Shown here: positions 1 through 10,610 of the stretch, piece after piece | How positions within the stretch are numbered: the stretch's first letter is position 1 | Layout of the letters: each line of letters begins with the position of its first letter | DNA from: a virus | Taxonomy: Duplodnaviria > Heunggongvirae > Uroviricota > Caudoviricetes | Direction: 5' to 3' (one strand) | IMG/VR virus record: IMGVR_UViG_2531839178_000012 | Coordinates: 1 to 10,610 of that record | DNA length: 10,610 nt | Translations under genes and position numbers: made by a program | Notes under the pieces: generated by a model | Told to the model about the DNA's origin: nothing | What the model saw: only the letters and a program-made list of their open reading frames with translations | The model's database searches: none

Positions 1-1389
1 GTTTTTCCGGGCTTCATGGAGTTCTGCCCGCAGTTCCTGATATTTCGCATCAACAGAATTTACCTGTGACTGAGCATCCAGCGGCTGCGTGTTCTGATGA
101 TGTTCAGTTGCATTCGGTTCCACTGTTTCAGCCGTTGCCTGTTCATCTGTCATTGCGCCAGATGGTTGTGGTTTTTCTCCATCGTCCTGTTTTCTTTCTT
201 CTGTTACTCGCTGCGGCATCGGGGCAGAGGAGCGACCGCAGGCAATATCCACGATTTCCGGATCAGGGTTGGCATGATCGGTTTCAGTCAGTACTTTGTC
301 CAGATATTCAGTGACGTGTGCGGGGATGACCTCGATCCCAATTGGTGCTTCTTTCACGGACGCAACCACGATGGCGCGGGAATAATCCAGCCCGCCAGGC
401 ATGGTGATGAATTTGTCGCGGAAAACAGAAAAGGGTGGTTTATTTTCAGCGATAATTTCCTCAATGCGTTTAGCGTGTGCCGGATGAAGGTTATAGATGT
501 CCACGTCCATTGAACGGGCCAGTACGCCAGTGGCTACATCGCGCGTCAGTGACGTCAGATCGTGGACGAAACCTTCGCCGCGATCGGTGAGGTTCCCGCC
601 GCCAGCATTAGCACCGGAAGTCGTGCGAGTGATGCGTGAAACACGATTCCCTTTTCGCCATTCTTTTGTCAGAAGACCGCGATCAATGTGTTCGGTATCC
701 AGCCAGGCTGAAATGAAATTCTTAAATTCATAGGGCTGATGTTTTTTCGTGATAGAGAAAACTGCCTTAATTGCATCAGTCAGGCGGAGCAGGGCGGCAT
801 TATCCAGAGTTGTCGGTTCTGCCATGCCGCGTATGGCCAACAGCAGATTCTGGACATAGCTGTTTTCCTGATCCATCTCAAGAGCAGTAATGTGTTTGCG
901 TTGTTCACGGGTGGCATGATGCAGGTATTTCCGATCCCCGGCAGCATACGTAAAAATGTGCAGAAGACGCTGTGTGAACCGCAAAGTGGCTACAGAGACT
1001 TCGCAATCCTGGCAATCCTCGTGGGCGTCTGCCTGCGCGTTTTCTTCCTGGCCTCCCGCCAGTTCTTTGGTTTCTTGAGCATTATCCTGGTGGTGAACGT
1101 CGTCTGGCGCTGCTCCCGGTTTTAGTTCCCATGTCATGGAGTCTTTGCTGAGTTGATAGCGTTCACTCCAGGTAAAATCGATCTCACCTTCAGGGGGAAG
1201 GTCATTAACGACAGGAAAATTTGTGGCAACAGCTTTAAAATAGTTGCTCAGTTTTTTACCTGACTTAACGAGCAGATAGTCCAGAGTGGTGCTGGTCGAT
1301 TCAAAATCGTCGCTTGCCCACAGGACGACGTCAGGTTCACCGGATGATTTTTTCGCTTTCCGTAACAGGAAGAGTGGTTTTGTGCTCAT
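1..1389 (-). CDS. Large hypothetical prophage protein, at least 463 aa; the 3' end of the gene lies beyond the left window edge
   Basis: ATG at 1389..1387 preceded by GAGG about 10 nt upstream. I checked every in-frame triplet from 1389 down to 1 and found no stop codon on the minus strand. The several overlapping plus-strand ORFs in 66..1125 are typical antisense artefacts of a real gene. Acidic, low-complexity segment in the N-terminal third. Family not recognised with certainty. Confidence 0.7.
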
Positions 1390-1459
1390 TGTTTTTTAAC
1401 CTCAACTCAGATTAAAATTACTGCGAGTGATGAATAAATGTCCCAGGTTCTTCACTCAG

Positions 1460-1489
1460 GCCTGCACACTGTGCAGGCTTTCTTTTTTT
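1460..1489 (+). terminator. Intrinsic-terminator-like hairpin oriented for plus-strand transcription
   Basis: Stem gcctgcac (1460-1467) / gtgcaggc (1471-1478), 3-nt loop, followed by tttcttttttt (1479-1489). On the minus strand the same hairpin is preceded, not followed, by the U/A run. Confidence 0.35.
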
Positions 1490-1517
1490 CAGATTTCACC
1501 TTTTAATTTCATTGCAA

Positions 1518-1763
1518 TCAGAGTTGCCAGAAATTCGGCTTTTTTTCTGCGGGCAGATTATTTCCGATGTAAACCAGGCACATTTTTGTGGCACCTTCAA
1601 CAAGAGTTTTAAAGTTTCCTGATAGACCGTCGATATCAACCACAGTGAATGGGGTTTCTTTATTTTCTGTTTTAATTACGTAGCCAATATGCTTTCCTTC
1701 CAGGTAAACCTCGTGAATAATGTTATCAGTAGTTGCAACAGTGGCTTCATAATTGGTGTTCAT
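1518..1763 (-). CDS. Hypothetical small protein, 81 aa
   Basis: ATG at 1763 with AAGGAG 6 nt upstream; stop TGA at 1520..1518. Same strand as, and just upstream of, the large ORF. The ORF track's longer version (start 1811) lacks a comparable ribosome-binding site. Confidence 0.55.
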   Translation of the reverse strand: MNTNYEATVATTDNIIHEVYLEGKHIGYVIKTENKETPFTVVDIDGLSGNFKTLVEGATKMCLVYIGNNLPAEKKPNFWQL

Positions 1764-1837
1764 GTTTTTCTCCTTAATTAAGGTTGAGCGAATCCCTGCC
1801 ATTGCTGGCATAAATTCAGTTTCGAATAGTCAGTTAA

Positions 1838-2119
1838 TTAAAGTTCGTGTGCCATCTGGTCTTTTTCGGCGCAGATTTCACTACAATATTTGCGTTTCTT
1901 TTTCCTCATCATGGTTCCGTGCATGTAAATAAGTTCAGCAGTGTAAGCCTTATCAGGGCTTACTTGTCTGTCACACAGGCCATAAGCACAGGGAATTAAA
2001 TCGGGATCACCTTTCTGCTGGAGGGTTTTTTTGATTATCCATAACAATTTTTTGATTCCGGTGTGTGTTATGGTCTGCTGAGGTGCAGAGGTAAAACAAT
2101 AATCAAGCATAGGGTTCAT
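1838..2119 (-). CDS. Cys-rich small protein, 93 aa, possible zinc-binding (Cx4C ... Cx3C)
   Basis: ATG at 2119 with GGAG 8 nt upstream, starting 16 nt after the Rha-like stop (operon-like). Cys pairs CAYGLC and CSEIC about 30 residues apart, plus a basic patch RKKKRK. Confidence 0.55.
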   Translation of the reverse strand: MNPMLDYCFTSAPQQTITHTGIKKLLWIIKKTLQQKGDPDLIPCAYGLCDRQVSPDKAYTAELIYMHGTMMRKKKRKYCSEICAEKDQMAHEL

Positions 2120-2135
2120 ATCCGTAGCTCCATTT

Positions 2136-2684
2136 TTATTTTAAAGAAAGTAATTGTTCCACAGTCATATTTTTAATTGCGCCCCGGTTAACAAGAGTCC
2201 ATCCCTGTTTTTCCAGATAAAACCGGAAAGTCTCCAGGGTACAGACCAGTGCGCCATCAGGAACGGTTTCGGTGAATTCGACATTGCCGAATTTGTCGAA
2301 GTGAACAACCAGAGTGCGACCATCACCCGGAATCATCTTGTCAGCAGGTGGGGTGTTATTCTGGCGCAGTTCGGCCTCCATGCGGTCGAACTCAGCAATG
2401 TAGGCTTCCTTGAATGCGGCGGCTTTTTTGCCAGTGAAGCCCATCACCAGGAAAACGAAGCCGTTTTTGGTGATTTGGTACATTGGGAGTTTGCGCCCGG
2501 TTGAGTCGGTGTATTCGCTCGCCTCAAAATTGAGGGCAGTAAATTTATCTGAGCATTCAATATTTGCGATGGCACGTAACACATTGTCGTGTCGTTTGTG
2601 GAAGAACTCTGCAACCGCAACAGACGTAGTGACAGCGCGACCGTTTTCTACGGTTACACAAGGGTGAGAAAGGGTAGTAGCCAT
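2136..2684 (-). CDS. Rha-family phage regulatory protein (Phage_pRha-type N-terminal domain), 182 aa
   Basis: Segment VAEFFHKRHDNVLRAIANIE ... MYQITKNGFVFLVMGFTGKKAAAFKEAYIAEFDRMEAELR matches Rha-family motifs I recall (KRHDNVLR, GF.LLVMG.TGKKA). ATG at 2684 has GGAGG 8 nt upstream and puts the Rha domain at the N-terminus, as is typical. The track ORF extends in frame to 2978 (280 aa); see findings. Confidence 0.8.
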   Translation of the reverse strand: MATTLSHPCVTVENGRAVTTSVAVAEFFHKRHDNVLRAIANIECSDKFTALNFEASEYTDSTGRKLPMYQITKNGFVFLVMGFTGKKAAAFKEAYIAEFDRMEAELRQNNTPPADKMIPGDGRTLVVHFDKFGNVEFTETVPDGALVCTLETFRFYLEKQGWTLVNRGAIKNMTVEQLLSLK

Positions 2685-2850
2685 GATGGCAGCCTCCGCG
2701 ATGAATTTGATTAACTCACCACCGGAGGTAGCAATCTCATGGGTGGTGAGACGTACAGGGTTGCTACAACCGGTCATCACGGAACCCGGCCAGTCTTGCG
2801 ACTGCCCCGCACGCCCCACCATAATTTGAATGTGGCTGTGCATTACGCAT

Positions 2851-2873
2851 AAAAAAACCGCCTGAGCGCGGTT
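2851..2873 (-). terminator. Possible intrinsic terminator, minus-strand orientation
   Basis: Stem aaccgc/gcggtt with 6-nt loop (2856-2873); on the minus strand it is followed by T7 (complement of the A-run 2851-2857). Modest stem (4 GC pairs). It lies inside the optional N-terminal extension of the Rha ORF, so it conflicts with that longer gene model. Confidence 0.3.
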
Positions 2874-3379
2874 ATGCGCCGTGAATGACTTCGGGGTAGC
2901 AATCCCGGCACCCGTTTTATGAGGTGCAGGTGCACTATAATTCCACCCGTTCTGGTTTTCAATAGCTACATTCAACATTTTCTCTTTCCTTTCATCACCG
3001 AAGTGAACTTTGTTGATGCGGTGCCTGGTGCCTCCAGGTGACGTTAACCAGTTAATAATTAACGCCGGAATAAGGGATTTTCCTTACTGTTTTAACTGTT
3101 CCGCGTGCGCTGAGCCGCATTCACCGCATCACAAAATTCACTTTAAAAAGGGCGGACATCAGCCAGCAATTAAACCGATGCCGCCAACTGGTACTTCACA
3201 CAGCAATGTCGTTATTTACAACCGGAGGCGCACTCCCACCATTTAAATTTAACAGACAAGACCGACTCTTTATGGATACCGGAAATGCGCCTTCGTGTTG
3301 TGCCCGGTTTTATTTCACCACCTCCGGGCTTTGGTGGTATCTTTACTGAAGTTCTCGCACAACCAGTAAGGAAATGAAT

Positions 3380-3463
3380 ATGCCAACGTATCTCGCCAGA
3401 GTAGAACTATATAATGCTGAGCCAGAGGATTACGAAGGGCTTCATAAATATATGCTCTCACTA
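3380..3463 (+). pseudogene. 5' fragment of a small gene interrupted by IS630 (reconstituted ORF 78 aa)
   Basis: ATG at 3380 with AAGGA 8 nt upstream; the reading frame runs to the IS630 junction at 3463/3464 and continues in frame at 4619 after the IS (stop TGA 4769-4771). With the IS present the ORF stops at 3476-3478 inside the IS terminus. Confidence 0.55.
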
Positions 3464-4616
3464 AATAGCTGCGCTTAATACCGCTACACTTTTGCCAGTC
3501 CATGTTTGCCTCCGGGGAATGGGCTGACGGTTTCCATAAAATGGCGAACTTTTTTCAACAGTTGCCACATTGAGCGGCACTGATGATTACGCGTTATTGT
3601 GTCGTGAAGTGCCTGCCATAGCCGTTCAACATGATTCACCCATGGCGAGTAAACCGGCTGATAAATGCCCCTGAACTTCGGGTTCTCCTTCAGCCAGCTC
3701 TGTGTTTCCCGGCTTTTGTGGATAATGTAGTTGTCCACGATCAGCGTGATGGTTTTCGCCCGACGGTATGTCGCTTTAAGCCGCTTCAGCAGGCTGATGA
3801 ACAGCGCCGAACTTTTGCTGTTGCCGCCCACATAGCTGACTTTACCTGTCCCGCTGTGCAGCGCTCCGGCCAGATAATATTTTTCATTCTGTCCCGGCGT
3901 GACCACCCGTTTTTGCTGTCCGCGCAGTTGCCAGTCCGCACCGATTTTGGGATGAAGATGGATATCCACTTCATCTTCATAAAAGACCGGATGCTCTGCG
4001 CTGCATTCGTCCAGTGCTTTATGGATTGCTGCCATCTTTTCATCTTTATGCGGGTCACGGATACGCAGAGTTGGCGCAGCCCTTCGCCACACAATCCCCG
4101 CAGACGGCAACCAGCGGCGAACGGTTCCGGCATTTAACTGGCAACCGGTTATCTCATTGATTTTTATTGCCAGCAGTTCTGTACTCCAGCGTGAACGCTG
4201 GTAGCCAAAGTCGCCGGGAGAATGTTTTACCAGCTCACGTAACAGTGTGCAGATATGCTCAAACGGCCAGCGACGGGCACGCCCGGCAGGTAATGATTTC
4301 AGTCCCTCAACACCCGACTGCGTGAACCAGTTAATCCAGCGTCCAACAGAGGAACGGGCGCAGCAGAGCGTTCTGGCAACGTCGCTGACACGGTCGCCCC
4401 GGTGCAGCATCAGCATGGCAGTCAGTCTGCGGGCATAATTTTTATCGTGTGTTTTATGGATGGCTTTCTGCATCAGGCGTCGTTCGTCACGGGAAATTGG
4501 TGCTATGATCGGCATTGCTCAGTCCGGTTGGTGATTTGTTTTGATTTGGCGATTGTTCAGATCGCACAATCCGGGCTAAGTTCCCTCAAAGTGATCTACT
4601 ATTCCGCGCAGCTATT
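3464..4616 (-). mobile_element. IS630 (Tc1/mariner-related IS630 family), complete copy, 1153 bp
   Basis: Terminal inverted repeats AAATAGCTGCGC (3464-3475) and GCGCAGCTATTT (4605-4616). Flanked by TA (3462-3463) and TA (4617-4618) inside a C-TA...TA-G context, i.e. insertion into CTAG with TA duplication. Length 1153 bp agrees with IS630 as I recall it. Contains one 343-aa transposase ORF. Confidence 0.9.
3484..4515 (-). CDS. IS630 transposase, 343 aa
   Basis: Single long ORF filling the element. Sequence (MPIIAPISRDERRLMQKAIHKTHDKNYARRL ... DNYIIHKSRE ...) matches my recollection of the IS630 transposase, with an N-terminal HTH-like region and a C-terminal DDE-type region. Confidence 0.9.
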   Translation of the reverse strand: MPIIAPISRDERRLMQKAIHKTHDKNYARRLTAMLMLHRGDRVSDVARTLCCARSSVGRWINWFTQSGVEGLKSLPAGRARRWPFEHICTLLRELVKHSPGDFGYQRSRWSTELLAIKINEITGCQLNAGTVRRWLPSAGIVWRRAAPTLRIRDPHKDEKMAAIHKALDECSAEHPVFYEDEVDIHLHPKIGADWQLRGQQKRVVTPGQNEKYYLAGALHSGTGKVSYVGGNSKSSALFISLLKRLKATYRRAKTITLIVDNYIIHKSRETQSWLKENPKFRGIYQPVYSPWVNHVERLWQALHDTITRNHQCRSMWQLLKKVRHFMETVSPFPGGKHGLAKV

Positions 4617-4618
4617 TA

Positions 4619-4771
4619 GCATCCAGTAATCAGGTTAGCGAATTAACAATGTGGGTTAAACGACTGGTCAGTCAACTGAAAAAAGCTAAGCCTGACTGCA
4701 AATTACCGGAGAAGGCGATGGATTACCTGAAGCGAAATGGACTGATAAGCGTGGAGGATGTTTTACGATGA
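4619..4771 (+). pseudogene. 3' fragment of the IS630-interrupted small gene
   Basis: In frame with 3380..3463 once IS630 and one TA copy are removed. Encodes ...ASSNQVSELTMWVKRLVSQLKKAKPDCKLPEKAMDYLKRNGLISVEDVLR. Stop TGA 4769-4771 overlaps the ATG of the next ORF. Confidence 0.5.
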
Positions 4772-4851
4772 CCTGGCCTGAAGCATTCACCACGGTAGGA
4801 ATTGCAATGGCGGTGGCGCTGGTTGTGTATTCGATTTGCCGCTGGGGGTAA
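4768..4851 (+). CDS. 27-aa hydrophobic peptide (MTWPEAFTTVGIAMAVALVVYSICRWG), single predicted transmembrane helix
   Basis: The ATG overlaps the upstream stop in an ATGA arrangement (translational coupling). Hydrophobic core of about 17 residues. Followed by a hairpin at 4858-4876 (ccagccc/gggctgg). No recognisable family; existence of the gene is uncertain. Confidence 0.35.
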   Translation: MTWPEAFTTVGIAMAVALVVYSICRWG

Positions 4852-4880
4852 GGTAAACCAGCCCCGAACGGGCTGGTAAT

Positions 4881-5167
4881 TTAAAGAGGTAATTTGATGA
4901 TGGCTGTCAGTGCGCCAACAGCAACGACGAGCATGCCACCAAATCTGACGGTCAGTTGCAGGCTGAGTTTGTCTATTTTTGCATCAAGGGCTGCAATGTC
5001 GTTTTTAGTTCAGTTCTGACATCATTTAGGTCGCGCTTTGTGGCGACTTCTGCGGCTTCGTGAGAATCTTTCACTGCGGCAGATATAGCGCGCGCCTGAG
5101 CTGCCGGCATTCCTGCGGCTTCCAAGGTTTCGACGAACTTCAGTGTATCAAAATAGACCTGAGCCAT
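4881..5167 (-). pseudogene. DUF1640-like small tail-anchored protein, disrupted by a -1 frameshift in a homopolymer
   Basis: N-terminal ORF 5167..4973 (MAQVYFDTLKFVETLEAAGMPAAQARAISAAVK...) with GAAGGA 7 nt upstream of the ATG. The C-terminal part (DIAALDAKIDKLSLQLTVRFGGMLVVAVGALTAIIKLPL, stop 4883-4881) is in another frame. One extra A/T in the T5 run at 5002-5006 would restore a roughly 96-aa ORF. Confidence 0.6.
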
Positions 5168-5218
5168 GTTAAATCCTTCGTTGTTGGGGAATATTGTTAG
5201 TTTAGCCTGTAGTGGCTG

Positions 5219-5248
5219 TTGACGACAACGTTAATCCGGGGCTATATT
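5219..5248 (+). promoter_or_regulatory. Sigma70-type promoter, copy 1 of a duplicated late-promoter-like module
   Basis: -35 TTGACG (5219-5224), 18-bp spacer, -10 TATATT (5243-5248). Homologous to the promoter at 9400-9429 that directly follows the Q-like gene. Confidence 0.5.
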
Positions 5249-5293
5249 CCTCACGCGCCAGCAAAATCTGGCGTCGGGATTGGCGTCCCGGAT
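5234..5293 (+). repeat. 60-bp exact direct repeat, copy 1 (promoter -10 plus initial transcribed region)
   Basis: atccggggctatattcctcacgcgccagcaaaatctggcgtcgggattggcgtcccggat is identical at 5234-5293 and 9415-9474. Flanks are related upstream (CTGTTGAC[G/T]) and diverge downstream. Confidence 0.9.
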
Positions 5294-5331
5294 GTTTACG
5301 GAGCGATATGAGACGCGTCCGCGTCTTTTTT
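5255..5331 (+). ncRNA. Predicted short terminated transcript (about 77 nt), analogous to a lambdoid 6S/pR' leader RNA
   Basis: Predicted start about 7 nt after the -10; two hairpins (cgccag/ctggcg and cggga/tcccg), then an intrinsic terminator at 5311-5331. Existence of the transcript is inferred, not observed. Confidence 0.35.
5311..5331 (+). terminator. Intrinsic terminator (tR'-like)
   Basis: Stem agacgc (5311-5316) / gcgtct (5321-5326), loop gtcc, then T-run to 5331. Confidence 0.5.
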
Positions 5332-5494
5332 CATATCGTTTGCACAGTCACATTCGCGATTTATGGCGGGCTGTGTGGGGGAGCCGAAAGGCTCGCCGGT
5401 TTCCGTACCCGGTTACGCCAACCCTGCACAGTTCGCCACCAGTTCGATTGGCGTCGTCGGTGGCGATAATTTCCAAATGTACGGAGTTATCGTT

Positions 5495-6043
5495 ATGACC
5501 ACTCAAATCTCTGTTGAAACTCTCTCCCCGATCGCCCATAACCAGATACCTGTTATTACCACTGAACTTTTGGCGCAGTTGTACGGCACAGAAGCGATTC
5601 GCATTCAGCAAAATCACGCCAGAAACGCTGAACGTTTTATTGAAGGTAAGCATTTTTATAAGTTAGTGGGCGATGAGCTTAGAGGTATGAAGCACAGACT
5701 ATCTTTAAGCGAGTCTGTGAAAATTGCCCGTAACGTTCGCTCCCTCATTCTCTGGACAGAACGCGGAGCAGCACGTCACGCCAAAATGCTCGAAACCGAT
5801 CAGGCGTGGGAAGTATTCGAAAAATTGGAAGACTGCTACTTCAACCAGTACGAGAAAGATCGGGCTACGGGGAAAATGAACATCGATATTCACCTGGCGA
5901 TCCGTGATGATAAAACTGCCTTCATCCGAAGTTATGCGCCTGGTCAGCTGGTGACGGTTGAAGAAGCCCTGATGTTGCTTAAATCGCGCGGATGGCTGGT
6001 AATGCCGCGAGATGAATTTGCCGGAAAATTAATGGAGCTTTAA
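5495..6043 (+). CDS. ORF6N-domain (KilA-N-like) phage protein, 182 aa
   Basis: ATG at 5495 with GGAG upstream, in frame with the longer track ORF. Motifs LAQLYGTEAIRIQQNHARNAERFIEGKHFYKL ... LILWTERGAARHAKMLETDQAWEVFEKL fit the ORF6N family pattern as I recall it (L..LY...RN.ERF, LWTE.G). Confidence 0.8.
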   Translation: MTTQISVETLSPIAHNQIPVITTELLAQLYGTEAIRIQQNHARNAERFIEGKHFYKLVGDELRGMKHRLSLSESVKIARNVRSLILWTERGAARHAKMLETDQAWEVFEKLEDCYFNQYEKDRATGKMNIDIHLAIRDDKTAFIRSYAPGQLVTVEEALMLLKSRGWLVMPRDEFAGKLMEL

Positions 6044-6057
6044 CTGGTTAAATTAGC

Positions 6058-6083
6058 CCCGATATGGGAATTCCCATATCGGG
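6058..6083. repeat. 26-bp perfect palindrome (cccgatatgggaa|ttcccatatcggg) centred on GAATTC
   Basis: Perfectly self-complementary, 15 nt after the ORF6N stop codon; no U-tract follows it. Confidence 0.85.
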
Positions 6084-6110
6084 AGAACATTACCACCGGG
6101 GATAAAATGA

Positions 6111-6139
6111 TTTGCGGTGAAAGGGAAGTTAAGTAGAAT
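6111..6139 (+). promoter_or_regulatory. Candidate promoter of the hok mRNA
   Basis: -10 TAGAAT (6134-6139) with a weak -35 (tttgcg, 6111-6116). The predicted start near 6146 gives a 5' end GGGUGCUUGAGGCU..., resembling the 5' end of plasmid R1 hok mRNA as I recall it. Confidence 0.3.
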
Positions 6140-6204
6140 TGCTGCGGGTGCTTGAGGCTATCTGTCTCAGGCATGAACACCAAAAGGCAGATGAGAAGCC
6201 CCAG

Positions 6205-6265
6205 TTAACATTACGCGTCCTGCAAGACGCTTAACATTAATCTGAGGCCAATTTCATGCTAGACA
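6205..6265 (-). ncRNA. sok: Sok-like antisense RNA (antitoxin of the hok locus), predicted
   Basis: Minus-strand promoter -35 TTGCCT (6299..6294), 17-bp spacer, -10 TAACCT (6276..6271), mirroring the R1 sok promoter layout. The transcript would overlap the mok start codon and ribosome-binding region; hairpin 6214-6231 followed by UAAUGUUAA. Confidence 0.4.
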
Positions 6266-6468
6266 CATGTAGGTTAGCCTCTTACGTGCCGGAAGGCAAG
6301 GAGAAGCAGGCTATGAAGCAGCAAAAGGCGATGTTAGTCGCCCTGATCGTCATCTGTTTAACCGTCATAGTGACGGCACTGGTAACGAGGAAAGACCTCT
6401 GTGAGGTACGAATCCGAACCGGCCAGACGGAGGTCGCTGTCTTCGTAGACTACGAATCCAGGAAGTAA
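6256..6468 (+). CDS. mok: Mok-like reading frame (in-frame N-terminal extension sharing the hok stop), 70 aa
   Basis: ATG at 6256, in frame with and ending at the hok stop, as in chromosomal mokC/hokC. The start region is the predicted Sok target. Confidence 0.55.
   Translation: MLDTCRLASYVPEGKEKQAMKQQKAMLVALIVICLTVIVTALVTRKDLCEVRIRTGQTEVAVFVDYESRK
6313..6468 (+). CDS. hok: Hok/Gef-family type I toxin, 51 aa
   Basis: MKQQKAMLVALIVICLTVIVTALVTRKDLCEVRIRTGQTEVAVFVDYESRK is near-identical over the first 44 residues to E. coli HokD/RelF and HokC/Gef as I recall them. Confidence 0.85.
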   Translation: MKQQKAMLVALIVICLTVIVTALVTRKDLCEVRIRTGQTEVAVFVDYESRK

Positions 6469-6545
6469 GAGTGACCGGGCGGGGAGCTGATCCCATCCCC
6501 GCCCACCTCTGATGTGTCAGGCATCCTCAACGCACCCGCACTTAA

Positions 6546-6588
6546 CCCGCCCATCGCTGTGATCTCTCAGCGTTTCGGCGGGTTTTTT
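6546..6588 (+). terminator. Intrinsic terminator of the hok transcript
   Basis: Outer stem cccgcc (6546-6551) / ggcggg (6577-6582) with inner stem cgctg/cagcg, followed by T6 (6583-6588). A 9-bp GC hairpin (6477-6504) lies just after the hok stop. Confidence 0.6.
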
Positions 6589-6608
6589 GTTGTTTATTTC
6601 CGGTGAAT

Positions 6609-6636
6609 TTGATTTGCGCACCTTCGCAGATAGAAT
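6609..6636 (+). promoter_or_regulatory. Candidate sigma70 promoter of the nin-like operon
   Basis: -35 TTGATT (6609-6614), 16-bp spacer, -10 TAGAAT (6631-6636), about 80 nt upstream of the 6718 start codon. Confidence 0.35.
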
Positions 6637-6717
6637 CGACTCACTTAAGTAGCGCGCAGGGAGAAGAGGGATGGACCCCGAACAGGGGAGAGCTATTTAT
6701 CTGGAAGGATTCTGAAG

Positions 6718-7005
6718 ATGAAAATCGAAGAATTGCGTGAAATTTTTAGTGAAAATGGCCTCTATGCTGTGCGCGTTGAGAATGGAGCGATTGTCAGCCA
6801 TTGCCGCATTAGATGTTTGCAATCTCAACAAAGGAAGAGCGGTGCTGTGTTATTTTATTTTTGTAATGGACTTCTGACGGACGGTTTTATTTTGCGTGAG
6901 GACGAATTTGTCACATCATTACGGGTTTTGAAAGAGATTGGTTTTAAGGCTGGTTTTCTGCTTTTGCTGAAGAATAAACTCATCTACAATCTTGAGCAGG
7001 ATTGA
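6718..7005 (+). CDS. Hypothetical small phage protein, 95 aa (occupies the position of rem in Qin-like prophages)
   Basis: ATG at 6718 with GGAAGGA 8 nt upstream. The assignment is positional only (hok - this ORF - DUF1367 - ... - Q). Confidence 0.55.
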   Translation: MKIEELREIFSENGLYAVRVENGAIVSHCRIRCLQSQQRKSGAVLFYFCNGLLTDGFILREDEFVTSLRVLKEIGFKAGFLLLLKNKLIYNLEQD

Positions 7006-7043
7006 ACTCCTGCTGTGTAACACCGTGCCACCGGAGAAAGCCG

Positions 7044-7643
7044 ATGGCACATATACAACTGGTCAAACAAACCTTTTCCGGATTACTTCTCCCGGCGACG
7101 CCGGAGAGTTGCGATTTTCTGCATCAAATCAAAATAGGTGAGTGGATACACGCAGACTTTAAGCGTGTGCGTAACTACGCATTCCACAAGCGTTTTTTCA
7201 AACTCCTGCAACTGGGTTTCGATTACTGGACTCCGGTCGGTGGGGCGATCACGCCTCGCGAACGAAAACTGGTGTCCGGTTTCGTTGATTACCTGTGTGA
7301 ATCAGTAGGCCGGGAACATACGCCAGCTCTGAGCGAAGCCGCAGAGCAATATCTGAATACAGTTGCGACACGCAGAACCCGTGATACGGCATTGCTAAAG
7401 TCGTTTGAGGCTTTCCGCGAGTGGGTAACCATTCAGGCCGGATTTTACACCGAGCATATTTATCCTGATGGTAGTCGTGGGCGCAGGGCAAAATCTATCG
7501 CATTTGCGAACATGGACGAAACCGAGTTTCAGCAGGTTTATAAATCTGTACTGAATGTGCTGTGGAACTGGATCCTGTTCCGTAAATTCTCCTCTCCGGA
7601 GGAAGTCGAAAATGTGGCCGCGCAGCTACTGGAGTTTGCGTAA
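7044..7643 (+). CDS. DUF1367-family phage protein (YdfU-like), 199 aa
   Basis: ATG at 7044 with GGAG 7 nt upstream. Family assignment from recalled similarity and the conserved position upstream of DUF1364 and Q. Confidence 0.75.
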   Translation: MAHIQLVKQTFSGLLLPATPESCDFLHQIKIGEWIHADFKRVRNYAFHKRFFKLLQLGFDYWTPVGGAITPRERKLVSGFVDYLCESVGREHTPALSEAAEQYLNTVATRRTRDTALLKSFEAFREWVTIQAGFYTEHIYPDGSRGRRAKSIAFANMDETEFQQVYKSVLNVLWNWILFRKFSSPEEVENVAAQLLEFA

Positions 7644-7933
7644 TGGTGGATTTACGTAAAGCGGCGCGGGGGCAGATGTGCACCGTCAGAATTCCTGGCT
7701 ACTGCAATCACGATCCGGAAACGTCTGTGCTGGCGCATTACCGACTGGCGGGAACGTGCGGAACAGCGACAAAACCACACGATATGCAGGCGGCGATTGC
7801 CTGTAGCTCATGCCACGATTTAATCGACGGGCGGGTAAAAACAAGCGATTACACCAAAGAAGAATTACGCCTGATGCATGCAGAAGGTGTTTTTCGCACG
7901 CAAGAAATCTGGAGAAAGGAAGGTTATTTATGA
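7643..7933 (+). CDS. DUF1364-family protein (YbcO-like), 96 aa
   Basis: TAATG start overlap with the previous gene. Motifs DLRKAARG.MC.VRIPG.CN..PETSVLAH.RL ... IACSSCHD match YbcO of prophage DLP12 as I recall it. Confidence 0.8.
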   Translation: MVDLRKAARGQMCTVRIPGYCNHDPETSVLAHYRLAGTCGTATKPHDMQAAIACSSCHDLIDGRVKTSDYTKEELRLMHAEGVFRTQEIWRKEGYL

Positions 7934-8254
7934 TTTACCCAACAAATACAGGCAAAAGCGGGGAACACCTTCGTCTCACCACGCTGGAAAGTGTCTGGAT
8001 TCAGGGAAAACTGCGCATGTGGGGGCGCTGGTCGTATATTGGCGGCGGTAAGACGGGGAATATGTTCAACCAGTTGTTGGCCTCTAAAAAGCTGACAAAA
8101 ACGGCAATTAACGAGGCGCTCCGGAGGATGAAAAAAGCAGGTCTGGACAAACCTGAACTTGAGGCTTTTTTGCGGGATATGATCAACGGCAAGCAAAAAA
8201 GCTGGCTGGTGCATTGTACTGATGCAGAGGCGTTATGCATTGATCGGGTGATTA
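7930..8254 (+). pseudogene. Q-like late antiterminator, 5' part, interrupted by an IS5-family element
   Basis: ATGA start overlap with the DUF1364 gene. The frame runs to the IS junction at 8254/8255 and, after removing the IS and one TA, continues in frame at 9174 to the stop at 9401-9403 (about 184 aa). A WG.W motif near the N-terminus and the position after a ybcO-like gene and before a promoter module suggest a Q-type antiterminator; family assignment is tentative. Confidence 0.55.
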
Positions 8255-8265
8255 GGCTGTGTCCC

Positions 8266-8571
8266 TTAATTACGTAAGCGTTGATAAAAGAGTCGGATGC
8301 AGCCCAGTTTCACCATCGCCAGGTAATTTCTCGCCGTTTTGTCGTAACGCGTGGCGATGCGGCGATATTCTTTCAGCCGCCCAAAGCACCGTTCAACGAC
8401 ATTACGATTGCAGTACGCATCACGATCAAGCTGTGCACGTCCATCCGATGCCATTTTCTCATTTGACTTTCGGGGGATTACTGCCTTTATACCGTTATTT
8501 TTCAGCTCGTTGCGCAATGCGCGCCCTGAATACGCTTTATCAGCCAGTACCGCATGTCCACGGCGTTTCAT
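8266..8571 (-). CDS. IS5-family transposase, C-terminal ORF (OrfB)
   Basis: C-terminal motif VVERCFGRLKEYRRIATRYDKTARNYLAMVKLGCIRL resembles the IS5-family signature. The frame is open upstream to about 8646 and overlaps the OrfA frame region, suggesting frameshift expression or a degenerate copy. Confidence 0.6.
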   Translation of the reverse strand: MKRRGHAVLADKAYSGRALRNELKNNGIKAVIPRKSNEKMASDGRAQLDRDAYCNRNVVERCFGRLKEYRRIATRYDKTARNYLAMVKLGCIRLFYQRLRN

Positions 8572-8661
8572 GCTGCCGTTCTGACGCTGAACGCCAATCC
8601 CGTCCAGAAGTCGTTGCGCGAACTGGCTTTCATGAGCTTGTCCGGGGGCTTAGCACGATAT

Positions 8662-9111
8662 TTATCGGGAGGCCACTTCCGTCTGTTGCCAGATGGATTT
8701 TGGTGCCAAAACCGCCGCGAGAGCGACCCAGCCCATTATCTCCGTCGATATCGGGATGTTTTTTTGAGCACCGGCGGCACATTTCAGCGCCCGGATATTA
8801 CTGCCATCCAGCGCGGTGGCAGACCAGTCAATAAAGCCGTTTGCATCAAGTAGCGAAAGCAACCTGTTGAAAATAATATTAATCACGCCTGACTTAGACC
8901 ATCGGTTAAAGCGGTTATAAACAGTTTTCCATGACCCATATCGTTCGGGTAAATCGCGCCATGGTGCACCGGAACATAACACCCAGAACATGCCATTGAT
9001 GATTTTACGGTGCTCAGCCCATGGGCGTCCGGCCCGTGGTGTGGCGGGTTCAGGAGGTAACAGGGGCTTGATGATGGTCCATGCCTCATCGGGAAGGTCG
9101 TAGCGAGCCAT
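8662..9111 (-). CDS. IS5-family transposase, N-terminal ORF (OrfA), 149 aa
   Basis: MARYDLPDEAWTIIKPLLPPE ... APWRDLPERYGSWKTVYNRFNRW is a typical IS5-family N-terminal motif set. Confidence 0.7.
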   Translation of the reverse strand: MARYDLPDEAWTIIKPLLPPEPATPRAGRPWAEHRKIINGMFWVLCSGAPWRDLPERYGSWKTVYNRFNRWSKSGVINIIFNRLLSLLDANGFIDWSATALDGSNIRALKCAAGAQKNIPISTEIMGWVALAAVLAPKSIWQQTEVASR

Positions 9112-9173
9112 AGTTCAATATGTTGTGTAAACAGACAGTTACTATAGCTCAGATGATTAAGGGACACAGCCTA

Positions 9174-9403
9174 GTGAAGTGCTGGCAGAACACCCAGGAT
9201 TGATTTGTATCCTCCGGCAACGATATGAAGGGAGGGGGATGACTAAGCGAAAAATGGCTGAATTGCTGAATGATTCACACCCTGAGTGGTGTTACGCCAC
9301 GTGCCGTAATCGCATAGATGCGTGGTTGAAAATGGCAGAGTTTATGCTCTATCTGCCGATGCGTGATGCATTCTCTTCCGGGGATTTAAAAACTGTCTGT
9401 TGA
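9174..9403 (+). pseudogene. Q-like antiterminator, 3' part, separated from the 5' part by the IS5-family insertion
   Basis: In frame with 7930..8254 across the reconstructed insertion site. The track's ORF 9179..9403 begins at a GTG read as M, so it is not an independent gene. Confidence 0.5.
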
Positions 9404-9429
9404 CTCAATCTGTTATCCGGGGCTATATT
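9400..9429 (+). promoter_or_regulatory. Late-promoter-like sigma70 promoter (pR'-like), copy 2, immediately after the Q-like gene
   Basis: -35 TTGACT (9400-9405, overlapping the Q stop codon), 18-bp spacer, -10 TATATT (9424-9429). Lambda pR' also has a TTGACT -35 as I recall it. The transcribed region is identical to copy 1 for 60 bp. Confidence 0.5.
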
Positions 9430-9474
9430 CCTCACGCGCCAGCAAAATCTGGCGTCGGGATTGGCGTCCCGGAT
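9415..9474 (+). repeat. 60-bp exact direct repeat, copy 2
   Basis: Identical to 5234-5293. Identity ends a few bp before the IS911-like element begins. Confidence 0.9.
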
Positions 9475-9481
9475 ATCGAAA

Positions 9482-10421
9482 TGAGGTGTACTGGCAATAG
9501 CGGACACTACCATTTGTCTTTTTTTAAGCAGCCATCTGATGATATTTTTCCCTGAAGGCTGCCGGGGAGATATTCCCCAGACGAGAGTGACGACGCTGAC
9601 GATTGTAGAAAATCTCAATGTATTCCCGTATTACTGAGATGGCTTCATCCCGGTTATTAAAACGATAGTGGCTCAGGCTCTCATTTTTCAGCGTTCCCCA
9701 GAAGCTTTCCATCGGAGCGTTGTCGTAACAGTTACCTTAACGGCGACATTGGATGTTTTCAGACCAAACTGCTCCTGTATGACCCGGTAATCGTATGCGC
9801 AGTACTGTGAACCTCGATCAGAGTGGTGGATTAGCCCGGCAGGTGGGCGCTGGCTCCTGAGCGCCATAAACAGGGCTTTACCTGTCAGCTCTTTTGTCAT
9901 GCGCTCTCCCATGGCGTAGCCGACAATTTTGCACGTATAAACATCTTTGATGCCAGCGAGGTACAACCATCCCTCCTGTGTGGCAACATACGTCAGGTCC
10001 GCCACCCAGACCTGATTTGGTGCTGTAGGAGCGAACGTCTGGTTCAACAGATTTGGCGCAACTGGCAGATTGTGGTTCGGGTTCGTAGTCGCTCTGAACT
10101 TGCGTTTCTGCTTACAGCGTAGCCTTAGCTCCTTACGAAGACGTGCCAGTCGGTCACGACCAACGATGATGCCATTCTCTGCCAGCTCCGTCTGGAGCCG
10201 CCGGGTTCCATATGTTTCGCGAGTGCGGATATGTGCCACCTTAATCTCCAGTTTTAGCCGCTCATCACTTTGTTTTCTGTCTGAGGGTTCATGCTGTACC
10301 CAGTTGTAATAACCGCTCCTGGATACACCAAATACCTGACACATCGCTTCAATGGGAAATTGTTGTCGCCATTGTTCGATTAACGCGTATTTTTCAGCGA
10401 CTCCTGTGCAAAATACGCTGT
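9482..10421 (-). mobile_element. IS3-family (IS911-like) element remnant, truncated at its orfA side by IS30
   Basis: Contains an IS911-type orfB on the minus strand and only the last codons of orfA. The terminus near 9482 starts TGAGGTG (IS3-family ends begin TG). The inner boundary is set by the IS30 end at 10422. The left boundary is approximate. Confidence 0.7.
9524..10344 (-). pseudogene. insO: IS911-type transposase OrfB (InsO-like), inactivated by indels
   Basis: ORF 10344..9688 (MCQVFGVSRSGYYNWVQHEPSDRKQ ... HSDRGSQYCAYDYRVIQEQFGLKTS) and ORF 9712..9524 (MESFWGTLKNESLSHYRFNNRDEAISVIREYIEIFYNRQRRHSRLGNISPAAFREKYHQMAA) are two halves of one IS3-family OrfB. Several small indels near 9700-9730 break the expected SRKGNCYDNAP segment. 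Confidence 0.8.
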
Positions 10422-10610
10422 TGTAGATTCAATCTGTCAATGCAACACCCCTTTCAATTATCTCTTTCGGTGTTTTGAACTTCAGTGTCTTTCTCGGTCT
10501 GTTGTTTAGCTGAGCAGCAACCAGATCTAGTTCATGTTGAGTATATTGGGCAAGACATGTCTTTTTAGGAAAGTACTGCCGAATTAGCCCATTTGTGTTC
10601 TCATTTGTTC
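10422..10610 (-). mobile_element. IS30, terminal 189 bp of a copy that continues beyond the right window edge
   Basis: The terminus TGTAGATTCAATCTGTCAATGCAACACC starting at 10422 matches the IS30 end as I recall it. The transposase C-terminus is encoded on the minus strand. Confidence 0.75.
10429..10610 (-). CDS. insI: IS30 transposase, C-terminal fragment (5' part of the gene is outside the window)
   Basis: Minus-strand translation ends ...FPKKTCLAQYTQHELDLVAAQLNNRPRKTLKFKTPKEIIERGVALTD, the characteristic IS30 transposase C-terminus (LNNRPRK..L.F.TP.E). Stop at 10431..10429. Confidence 0.75.
   Translation of the reverse strand, partial: TNENTNGLIRQYFPKKTCLAQYTQHELDLVAAQLNNRPRKTLKFKTPKEIIERGVALTD

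Follow-up and report, generated by a model that had tools for sequence, protein, structure and literature searches.

Can a reading frame of only 27 codons, lying in the remains of a prophage, be taken for a gene, and if so, what might its product do? The question is posed by an open reading frame (ORF) at positions 4768-4851 of a stretch of 10,610 nucleotides (nt) of the virus record IMGVR_UViG_2531839178_000012 (positions 1 to 10,610 of that record), to which we refer, at its full length, as the window. The window is a mosaic, degraded Rac-like lambdoid prophage of Escherichia coli. A preliminary description, made from the letters of the DNA alone, had drawn attention to the segment 4619-4851 and to the hydrophobic peptide encoded by this ORF, MTWPEAFTTVGIAMAVALVVYSICRWG, whose ATG overlaps the stop codon of the preceding frame in an ATGA and whose own stop codon is followed by a hairpin; all of these are found exactly where they had been placed. 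Taken alone, a 27-codon ORF is not above chance in a window that has many ORFs of 20-40 codons. It is the comparative evidence that lifts this one above it.

That evidence is best explained overall, with a probability that we put at roughly 0.6, by a conserved phage membrane microprotein of 27 residues that is expressed early, is translated in coupling with the gene before it and acts by helix packing, the copy in the window being stranded. The peptide belongs to an unnamed family of 27-residue phage-encoded small membrane proteins, of which the window carries the commonest variant. The family is new; the kind of protein is known.

Conservation of the reading frame and its product

The length of the frame is its most conspicuous conserved property. 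In a pattern scan of viral contigs that left the stop codon unspecified, 127 of the 129 selected loci stop exactly after codon 27. When the scan was anchored outside the ORF instead, on 24 nt that run from the 3' end of a DUF551 gene through the ATGA, 115 of 119 evaluable loci had 27 codons, two had 29 and two were frameshifted; a third set, obtained with codon 2 left free in the pattern, has 27 codons in 211 of its 216 loci. Variants keep this length down to 59% identity, and start and stop codons are conserved among variants that are only 59-67% identical. Lack of conservation, or stop codons in homologues, which the preliminary description had named as the outcomes contrary to its proposal, are clearly not what these counts display.

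The comparison of synonymous and nonsynonymous variation that it had called for also came out on the side of a gene. Substitutions were counted on the minimum spanning tree that joins 67 distinct nucleotide sequences; 56, 53 and 132 of the changes fall at codon positions 1, 2 and 3. Among codon changes of a single base, 100 are synonymous and 90 nonsynonymous, where a synonymous share of 28% is expected (p = 7e-13), and the ratio of nonsynonymous to synonymous rates (dN/dS) is ~0.35. For the 16 codons that the pattern does not fix the ratio is 0.42 (p = 4e-7), and in the unbiased anchor set it is 0.54 (p = 0.01).

The antisense frame -1 shares its wobble positions with the sense frame, has the same synonymous fraction (0.53) and is free of stop codons in 65 of the 67 variants. 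Replacements are conservative in the sense frame, with a mean BLOSUM62 score of +0.38 against -0.56 expected, whereas in antisense frame -1 they are not (-0.40 against -0.29 expected). This difference, the conserved ATG and stop codon, the Shine-Dalgarno (SD) sequence and block boundaries that match the sense ORF all favour the sense frame, and the openness of the other frame would follow passively from a peptide with one tyrosine and almost no histidine or glutamine. Judged by these comparisons, ORF 4768-4851 is a genuine, conserved protein-coding gene. Tests by codon position or dN/dS alone would have "validated" an antisense gene that does not exist. In the record of Shigella phage POCJ13, small ORFs are annotated on the opposite strand at the site of the peptide gene. 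The copy in that phage (locus L009, 2001-2081) is a natural pseudogene in which TGG at codon 3 has become TAG.

The product bears out the hydrophobic, single-helix peptide of the preliminary description. Its best 19-residue Kyte-Doolittle mean, 2.11 over residues 6-24, is also the median of the maxima over 42 distinct variants, and one transmembrane (TM) helix is plausible. Across these variants M1, P4, A6, G11 and W26 are invariant, W3 is present in 40, A15, A17, Y21 and S22 are near-invariant (40-41 of 42) and R25 is kept in 36; position 13 is only ever A or V, and positions 8, 10, 12, 14 and 16 accept various hydrophobic or small residues. G11, A13, A15 and A17, small residues at every second position, give two small-xxx-small faces. 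Aromatic residues stand near both ends (W3 and F7, Y21 and W26) of a helix of ~23 residues, with an acidic residue, E or D, at position 5 on the N-terminal side (E5 in the window peptide) and R25 on the C-terminal side; only about three residues (R-W-G) come after the helix. Residues 1-7 have a net charge of -1 in 40 of the 42 variants, and residues 23-27 one of +1 or +2 in 36 (+1 in 34), from which the positive-inside rule predicts an N-out/C-in topology. Conservation confined to one face of the helix was considered as an argument for a specific partner and was dropped after a permutation test, of which more below.

A module in changing surroundings

A blastn search with window positions 4740-4900 located the 84-nt block in 1764 of 5426 complete E. 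coli genomes, or about one third, in up to 7 places per genome. Many of the matches span precisely base 29 of the query, at the ATG, to base 112, the last base of the stop codon, an indication of how a gene of this size can travel as a mosaic module with exact ends at ATG and stop codon. By tblastn the gene is contained in 93 phage records, with carriers that include the Shiga toxin (Stx) phages 933W and VT2-Sakai, VT1-Sakai, BP-4795, Min27, Stx2 II, the Vequintavirinae phage TH18 and the 121-kb phage Av-05, which we take to be of the same kind as TH18. Lambdoid prophages, the Stx phages 933W and VT2-Sakai among them, and some rV5-like lytic phages carry it. It is also found on 181 plasmids (155 from Escherichia, 25 from Salmonella and 1 from Klebsiella), 174 of them non-mobilizable and, among the matches listed, mostly ~90-110 kb in size. 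These non-mobilizable carriers of ~100 kb are probably phage-plasmids. A scan of one genome per species with a strict pattern gave matches only in Escherichia and Shigella, apart from two contigs of less than 450 nt labelled Xanthomonas and Acinetobacter that are probable contamination. As far as these searches see, the family is limited to phages of Escherichia and Shigella and some of Salmonella. As a conserved early gene of Shiga-toxin phages under purifying selection, it offers a cheap and well-defined target for experiment.

Lambda has no homologue, and neither has any of the four K-12 prophages examined (DLP12, Rac, Qin, CPS-53); these are the systems in which small proteins have been mapped experimentally. 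This absence plausibly explains why surveys of small proteins in K-12 have never met the peptide. YpdJ, whose small ORF is similarly placed, was considered as a relative and is unrelated.

Databases hold the peptide without a name. Searches of Pfam, NCBIfam, PHROGs and PADLOC returned no family match above threshold; below it stand DUF883_C (14 bits, E = 0.042), phrog_4612 (E = 0.019) and KdpF (TIGR02115; 14.7 bits against a cut-off of 26.85, E = 0.024). An exhaustive HMMER search of 1.84 billion representative proteins gave 23 hits and no distant relatives, and a word-indexed search of a 5.8-billion-sequence collection, queried with a tandem of three natural variants, gave 25 clusters and recovered 8 of the 23 HMMER hits. 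None of the 25 clusters has a name beyond "hypothetical protein", and where an organism is named it is E. coli or E. albertii. Look-ups of exact sequences found the peptide deposited only as a "hypothetical", "bacteriophage" or "prophage protein", and fragments consisting of the peptide alone have been mislabelled "DUF551 domain-containing protein, partial" by NCBI. The searchable literature contains no match to four N-terminal heptapeptides, and papers on the exo-xis region make no mention of such an ORF. As the preliminary description had supposed of ORFs this short, it has been missed by annotation: it is unannotated in the phage records inspected, including that of the reference Stx phage 933W. 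Its 84 nt lie below the length limit usual for gene callers.

The surroundings of the block change on both sides. The match begins 3 nt before the end of the preceding coding sequence in most of the unrelated annotated contexts that were examined. The genes that precede it are of unrelated kinds: DUF551 or Ea22-like genes ending in ...LPEPPQEVNQ, phrog_660-type genes ending in ...GLISVEDVLR, a 156-aa gene of 933W ending in ...NIEQKVNQ and a gene annotated EaA ending in ...KKGMNQ. A DUF551 domain closes most of the upstream genes, and the identical peptide, in the variant of the window, stands behind three of these types, those with DUF551, of phrog_660 type and of 933W type. After the peptide gene come at least eight different sequences, with at least five different hairpins, hok/sok or another ORF, and then xis/int. 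In the annotated contexts the gene closes early ea/exo-xis or replication/nin operons and adjoins xis/int, hok/sok or a terminator (in 933W it ends ~100 nt upstream of sokW); an endolysin or spanin neighbour, or a lysis cassette, was never seen in those examined.

The junction with the upstream gene, by contrast with the genes that make it, is constant. With codon 2 left free in the pattern, the ATGA overlap is present in 216 of 216 loci, and an SD sequence, GGAGGA or AGGAGGTG, lies 5-9 nt upstream of the ATG, AGGAGGTG being conserved in the DUF551 contexts. The start/stop overlap behind the translational coupling proposed in the preliminary description is conserved across the family; in the window itself the upstream gene is only a 3' fragment. 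VT1-Sakai is an exception in that its preceding coding sequence ends at the start of the match, because its variant, MNWPEAF..., begins with ATGATGA (locus L007, 1998-2004; protein P0019). The first of the two ATGs there gives a product of 28 aa and retains the ATGA overlap with the stop codon of the DUF551 gene, despite the shift of the start by one codon.

In rare natural cases the upstream protein and the peptide are fused in frame (P0043, 114 aa; P0054, 101 aa; P0075, 143 aa). These fusions, which figure among the HMMER hits, arose by deletions that joined both frames; one is the representative of 11 member sequences from 7 contigs. Programmed frameshifting as a way to join the two proteins was considered and dropped, as no canonical slippery heptamer common to the contexts before the stop was seen on reading the sequences and the known fusions come from deletions.

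Possible modes of action

From its place and composition a course of events can be proposed for the peptide. The 84-nt module, from ATG to stop codon, always sits as the distal cistron in ATGA overlap with varied early genes; its peptide would most likely arise by coupled translation of an early transcript (pL or pR/nin), and would most likely act within the inner membrane by helix-helix packing. More tentatively, and at somewhat less than even odds, we propose that, early in lytic growth, it binds a membrane protein of the host and modulates it. E. coli has a class of small single-pass inner-membrane regulators to which KdpF, AcrZ, MgtS and CydX belong, and the peptide, at less than 50 aa with essentially one TM helix, shares their size, their single helix, their lack of much soluble part and their neglect by annotation. 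That class is a functional one and not a homologous family, however, and the peptide differs from its members in being phage-borne and coupled to genes for non-membrane proteins. The nearest analogies, these regulators of membrane proteins and ydfD of the K-12 prophage Qin, are analogies of function.

Could the peptide instead damage the membrane? Its helix might homo-oligomerise and depolarise or permeabilise the inner membrane; the peptide would then be a small toxin, or a viroporin-like factor of host shutoff or lysis timing, that takes effect upon activation of the early operon. A single hydrophobic helix in 27 aa, with two small-xxx-small faces suited to self-association, a weak sub-threshold resemblance to the glycine-zipper region in DUF883_C, and repression of the prophage operon, under which toxicity would be tolerated, agree with such a role. 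There is a precedent in YdfD, a small prophage ORF that, like the peptide gene, overlaps the stop codon of a preceding early gene by 4 nt (dicB 21610-21798 and ydfD 21795-21986 in locus L139); each is found towards the distal end of its early operon, close to the integrase end. YdfD is annotated as a lysis protein, and its lysis phenotype is known. It has 63 aa, however, and tblastn found no similarity to the peptide in the Qin region. Other features make membrane damage an unlikely function. Both flanks vary, so that no antitoxin, antisense RNA or promoter of its own accompanies the gene; it is never in a lysis cassette; its tail has three residues and one positive charge; it matches neither Hok/Gef nor another toxin family; ~3% of copies are disrupted and up to 7 places per genome are occupied, with no sign of counter-selection; and it is carried by strictly lytic rV5-like phages, in which a toxin that stabilises prophages would make no sense. 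A modulator of a host protein is, in our view, somewhat more likely than a membrane-damaging oligomer.

The preliminary description had spoken of a toxin/modulator pair or of a holin-like lysis accessory, and neither suggestion finds support in comparison with known systems. Because both flanks vary freely, no antitoxin or antisense RNA travels with the gene, and an identical peptide stands behind three unrelated upstream families. The Hok/Gef peptides, represented by hokW/sokW in 933W and by a hok/sok locus in the window, are likewise small hydrophobic membrane peptides of phages and prophages. A hok gene comes with a transcript of its own, a mok leader and a cis-antisense Sok RNA; the 27-aa gene lacks all of these, gives no Pfam or NCBIfam match to Hok/Gef and shares its ATGA with upstream genes of various kinds. 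The reading as a Hok-type type I toxin was rejected on these grounds: Rfam places no antisense RNA over 4619-4851, there is no promoter or leader of its own, and no family is matched. Lambda S holin is also a hydrophobic membrane protein encoded by a phage, yet it has 107 aa and belongs to a late lysis cassette next to R/Rz, in contrast to 27 aa, a 3-residue tail and a place in early operons. Holins carry a charged C-terminal domain. The peptide has none, is too small and lies in the wrong operon, at the ends of ea/exo-xis or replication/nin operons with neither endolysin nor spanin beside it, and the holin was rejected as well.

Two further explanations turn to the neighbours of the peptide. 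It might be a membrane anchor for the upstream DUF551/Ea-type protein, either as a non-covalent partner made in fixed ratio or, occasionally, as a fused C-terminal tail anchor. The obligatory ATGA overlap, the DUF551 domain at the end of most upstream genes, the natural fusions and the DUF551 label that NCBI gives to some peptide-only fragments would all fit an anchor, and yet an identical peptide behind three unrelated upstream families shows no co-variation with a specific partner; the few fusions that exist derive from deletions and no shared slippery heptamer was seen before the stop, which leaves this role improbable. Still less probable is a peptide without any function, its block being kept as a nucleic-acid element (a recombination linker or an RNA structure) or for the sake of translation itself, for example to bring ribosomes up to the terminator or to influence termination 6 nt downstream. 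The agreement of block boundaries with mosaic junctions, the 6 nt between stop codon and hairpin in the window and the mostly open antisense frame with its equal synonymous fraction can be read in this way. Against it stand replacements that are conservative in the sense frame only, a dN/dS below 1 with an excess of third-position changes, start, length and stop kept between variants of 59-67% identity, and downstream hairpins that differ or are absent among contexts. Conserved RNA structure at the gene was considered and dropped, since the predicted fold of the region is no better than that of shuffled sequences (z = -1.2) and no Rfam family was found to overlap 4619-4851.

A number of observations weigh against the microprotein reading that we prefer, or against parts of it. 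The mode of action is something that we infer. The sets of loci selected by pattern are biased by their ascertainment, which is why the scan was repeated with an anchor outside the ORF, and the anchored set is in turn dominated by DUF551 contexts. Because sense frame and antisense frame -1 share wobble positions, synonymous and nonsynonymous counts alone cannot separate the two. The peptide sequence is absent from the text-format supplements of two translatome papers on enterohaemorrhagic E. coli. The TM segment is only moderately hydrophobic, conservation of one helix face is not significant (permutation p = 0.77), and the alternating small residues are as compatible with packing into a homo-oligomer as with binding of a partner. 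Finally, a hairpin that occludes the SD sequence is strong in the window and not universal across other contexts, so that it does not establish strict translational coupling.

Wider consequences can be imagined. It is possible, if doubtful, that this widespread and unrecognised family, being obligatorily coupled to early genes of the ea/DUF551 type, acts on a specific inner-membrane target of the host or tethers Ea22/DUF551 proteins, and so affects early development, superinfection or the induction of Stx phages. Ea22 has been reported to favour lysogeny.

The stranded copy and its flanks

For the window itself the message is modest: an intact yet stranded copy of the gene in a degraded Rac-like prophage. 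The features concerned are collected in the table.

Table. Features of the window at and around the peptide gene.
Feature	Position	Strand	Basis or remark
27-codon gene (with stop), single-pass membrane microprotein MTWPEAFTTVGIAMAVALVVYSICRWG	4768..4851	+	ORF, conserved length, purifying selection, hydropathy
Shine-Dalgarno sequence GGAGGA	4753..4758	+	9 nt before ATG, within 3' end of upstream ORF
ATGA start/stop overlap, translational coupling junction	4768..4771	+	216/216 homologous loci
8-bp G+C-rich hairpin, A4857-C4864 / G4870-T4877, loop CGAAC	4857..4877		Between peptide gene and convergent (-) gene
3' remnant of phrog_660-type early gene, last 48 codons, pseudogene fragment	4628..4771	+	phrog_660 match and alignment with locus L231
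IS630-family insertion sequence	3461..4619	-	20-nt terminal inverted repeats 3461-3480 and 4600-4619
343-aa DDE_3 transposase of the IS630-family element	3484-4515	-	Pfam DDE_3 and HTH domains
Convergent CCDC90-like / phrog_17872 gene	4880..5167	-	Frameshifted; context only, outside the peptide module

The preliminary description let the feature start at 4619, a position that still belongs to an insertion sequence of the IS630 family, as the final base of its right inverted repeat. The 343-aa ORF within this element was also considered as an integrase, which was rejected in favour of an IS630-family transposase. At its left end the element interrupts an ORF that begins with the ATG at 3381. 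The closest phage, vB_EcoS-666R9 (locus L231), makes clear what has been lost: window positions 3001-3341 match its kil-sieB junction (2814-3170) and window positions 4628-4847 align with its positions 8845-9064, so that relative to this phage ~5.7 kb adjoining the element are deleted. The missing segment covers the immunity and replication region of the prophage and held sieB, the repressor, cro, cII, O, a dnaC-like gene, ydaW and lygF, together with the first two-thirds of the upstream gene, which is intact in 666R9 (8485-8988, 167 aa).

The soluble upstream partner of the preliminary description is thus not a gene in the window; it is what the insertion and the deletion have left of one. 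From the first in-frame ATG, at 4649, the remnant reads as a 40-aa ORF (4649-4771) that matches positions 154-193 of the 193 of phrog_660 (E = 8e-22), and what remains upstream is the last 40-48 codons out of a gene for normally ~167-193 aa, no intact upstream gene being present here. The junction itself is untouched, and the peptide ATG at 4768-4770 still overlaps the TGA at 4769-4771. Since the element and the ~5.7-kb deletion have removed the promoter region and most of the upstream gene, the copy in the window is probably without a promoter. Indeed, no sigma-70-like promoter was found on the + strand between 4400 and 4768, and the transposase gene is directed away from the peptide gene. 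In the predicted minimum free energy structure the SD sequence pairs with peptide codons 5-9 in a hairpin, and in the context of the window its region has a probability of 0.10 of being unpaired. With no promoter-like site, a transposase gene that points away and an SD sequence predicted to be paired, the window copy, intact as it is, is probably silent.

The hairpin behind the gene begins 6 nt past the peptide stop codon and probably terminates transcription in both directions. Its T-tract on the + strand is weak (TAATTTAAA), and for this reason a simple consensus terminator scan of the window did not call it. In relatives the corresponding position is taken by other hairpins, some with canonical runs of T. 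The convergent gene on its far side encodes 95 aa in close relatives; in the window a run of five T at 5002-5006, where relatives have six, leaves it with a 64-aa ORF (4973-5167).

Further along, positions 6146-6318 (+) give a full-length Rfam match to the sok antitoxin RNA (96 bits), which places a genuine hok/sok type I locus at ~6.1-6.4 kb, ~1.3 kb downstream of the peptide gene. A 218-aa ORF at 9688-10344 (-) with rve integrase-core and HTH_21 domains marks a second mobile element, an IS3-type transposase or a fragment of one. Rfam also recognises three sets of isrK, C4 antisense RNA and a1/b1 target elements, at 5242-5443 (+), 2739-2927 (-) and 9423-9524 (+), which resemble the antirepressor control of the P1 immI type. 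One set lies just upstream of, and overlaps the start of, an ORF6N antirepressor-like ORF (5363-6043), and another overlaps the 5' end of an ORF with Rha/Ash domains (2136-2978, -).

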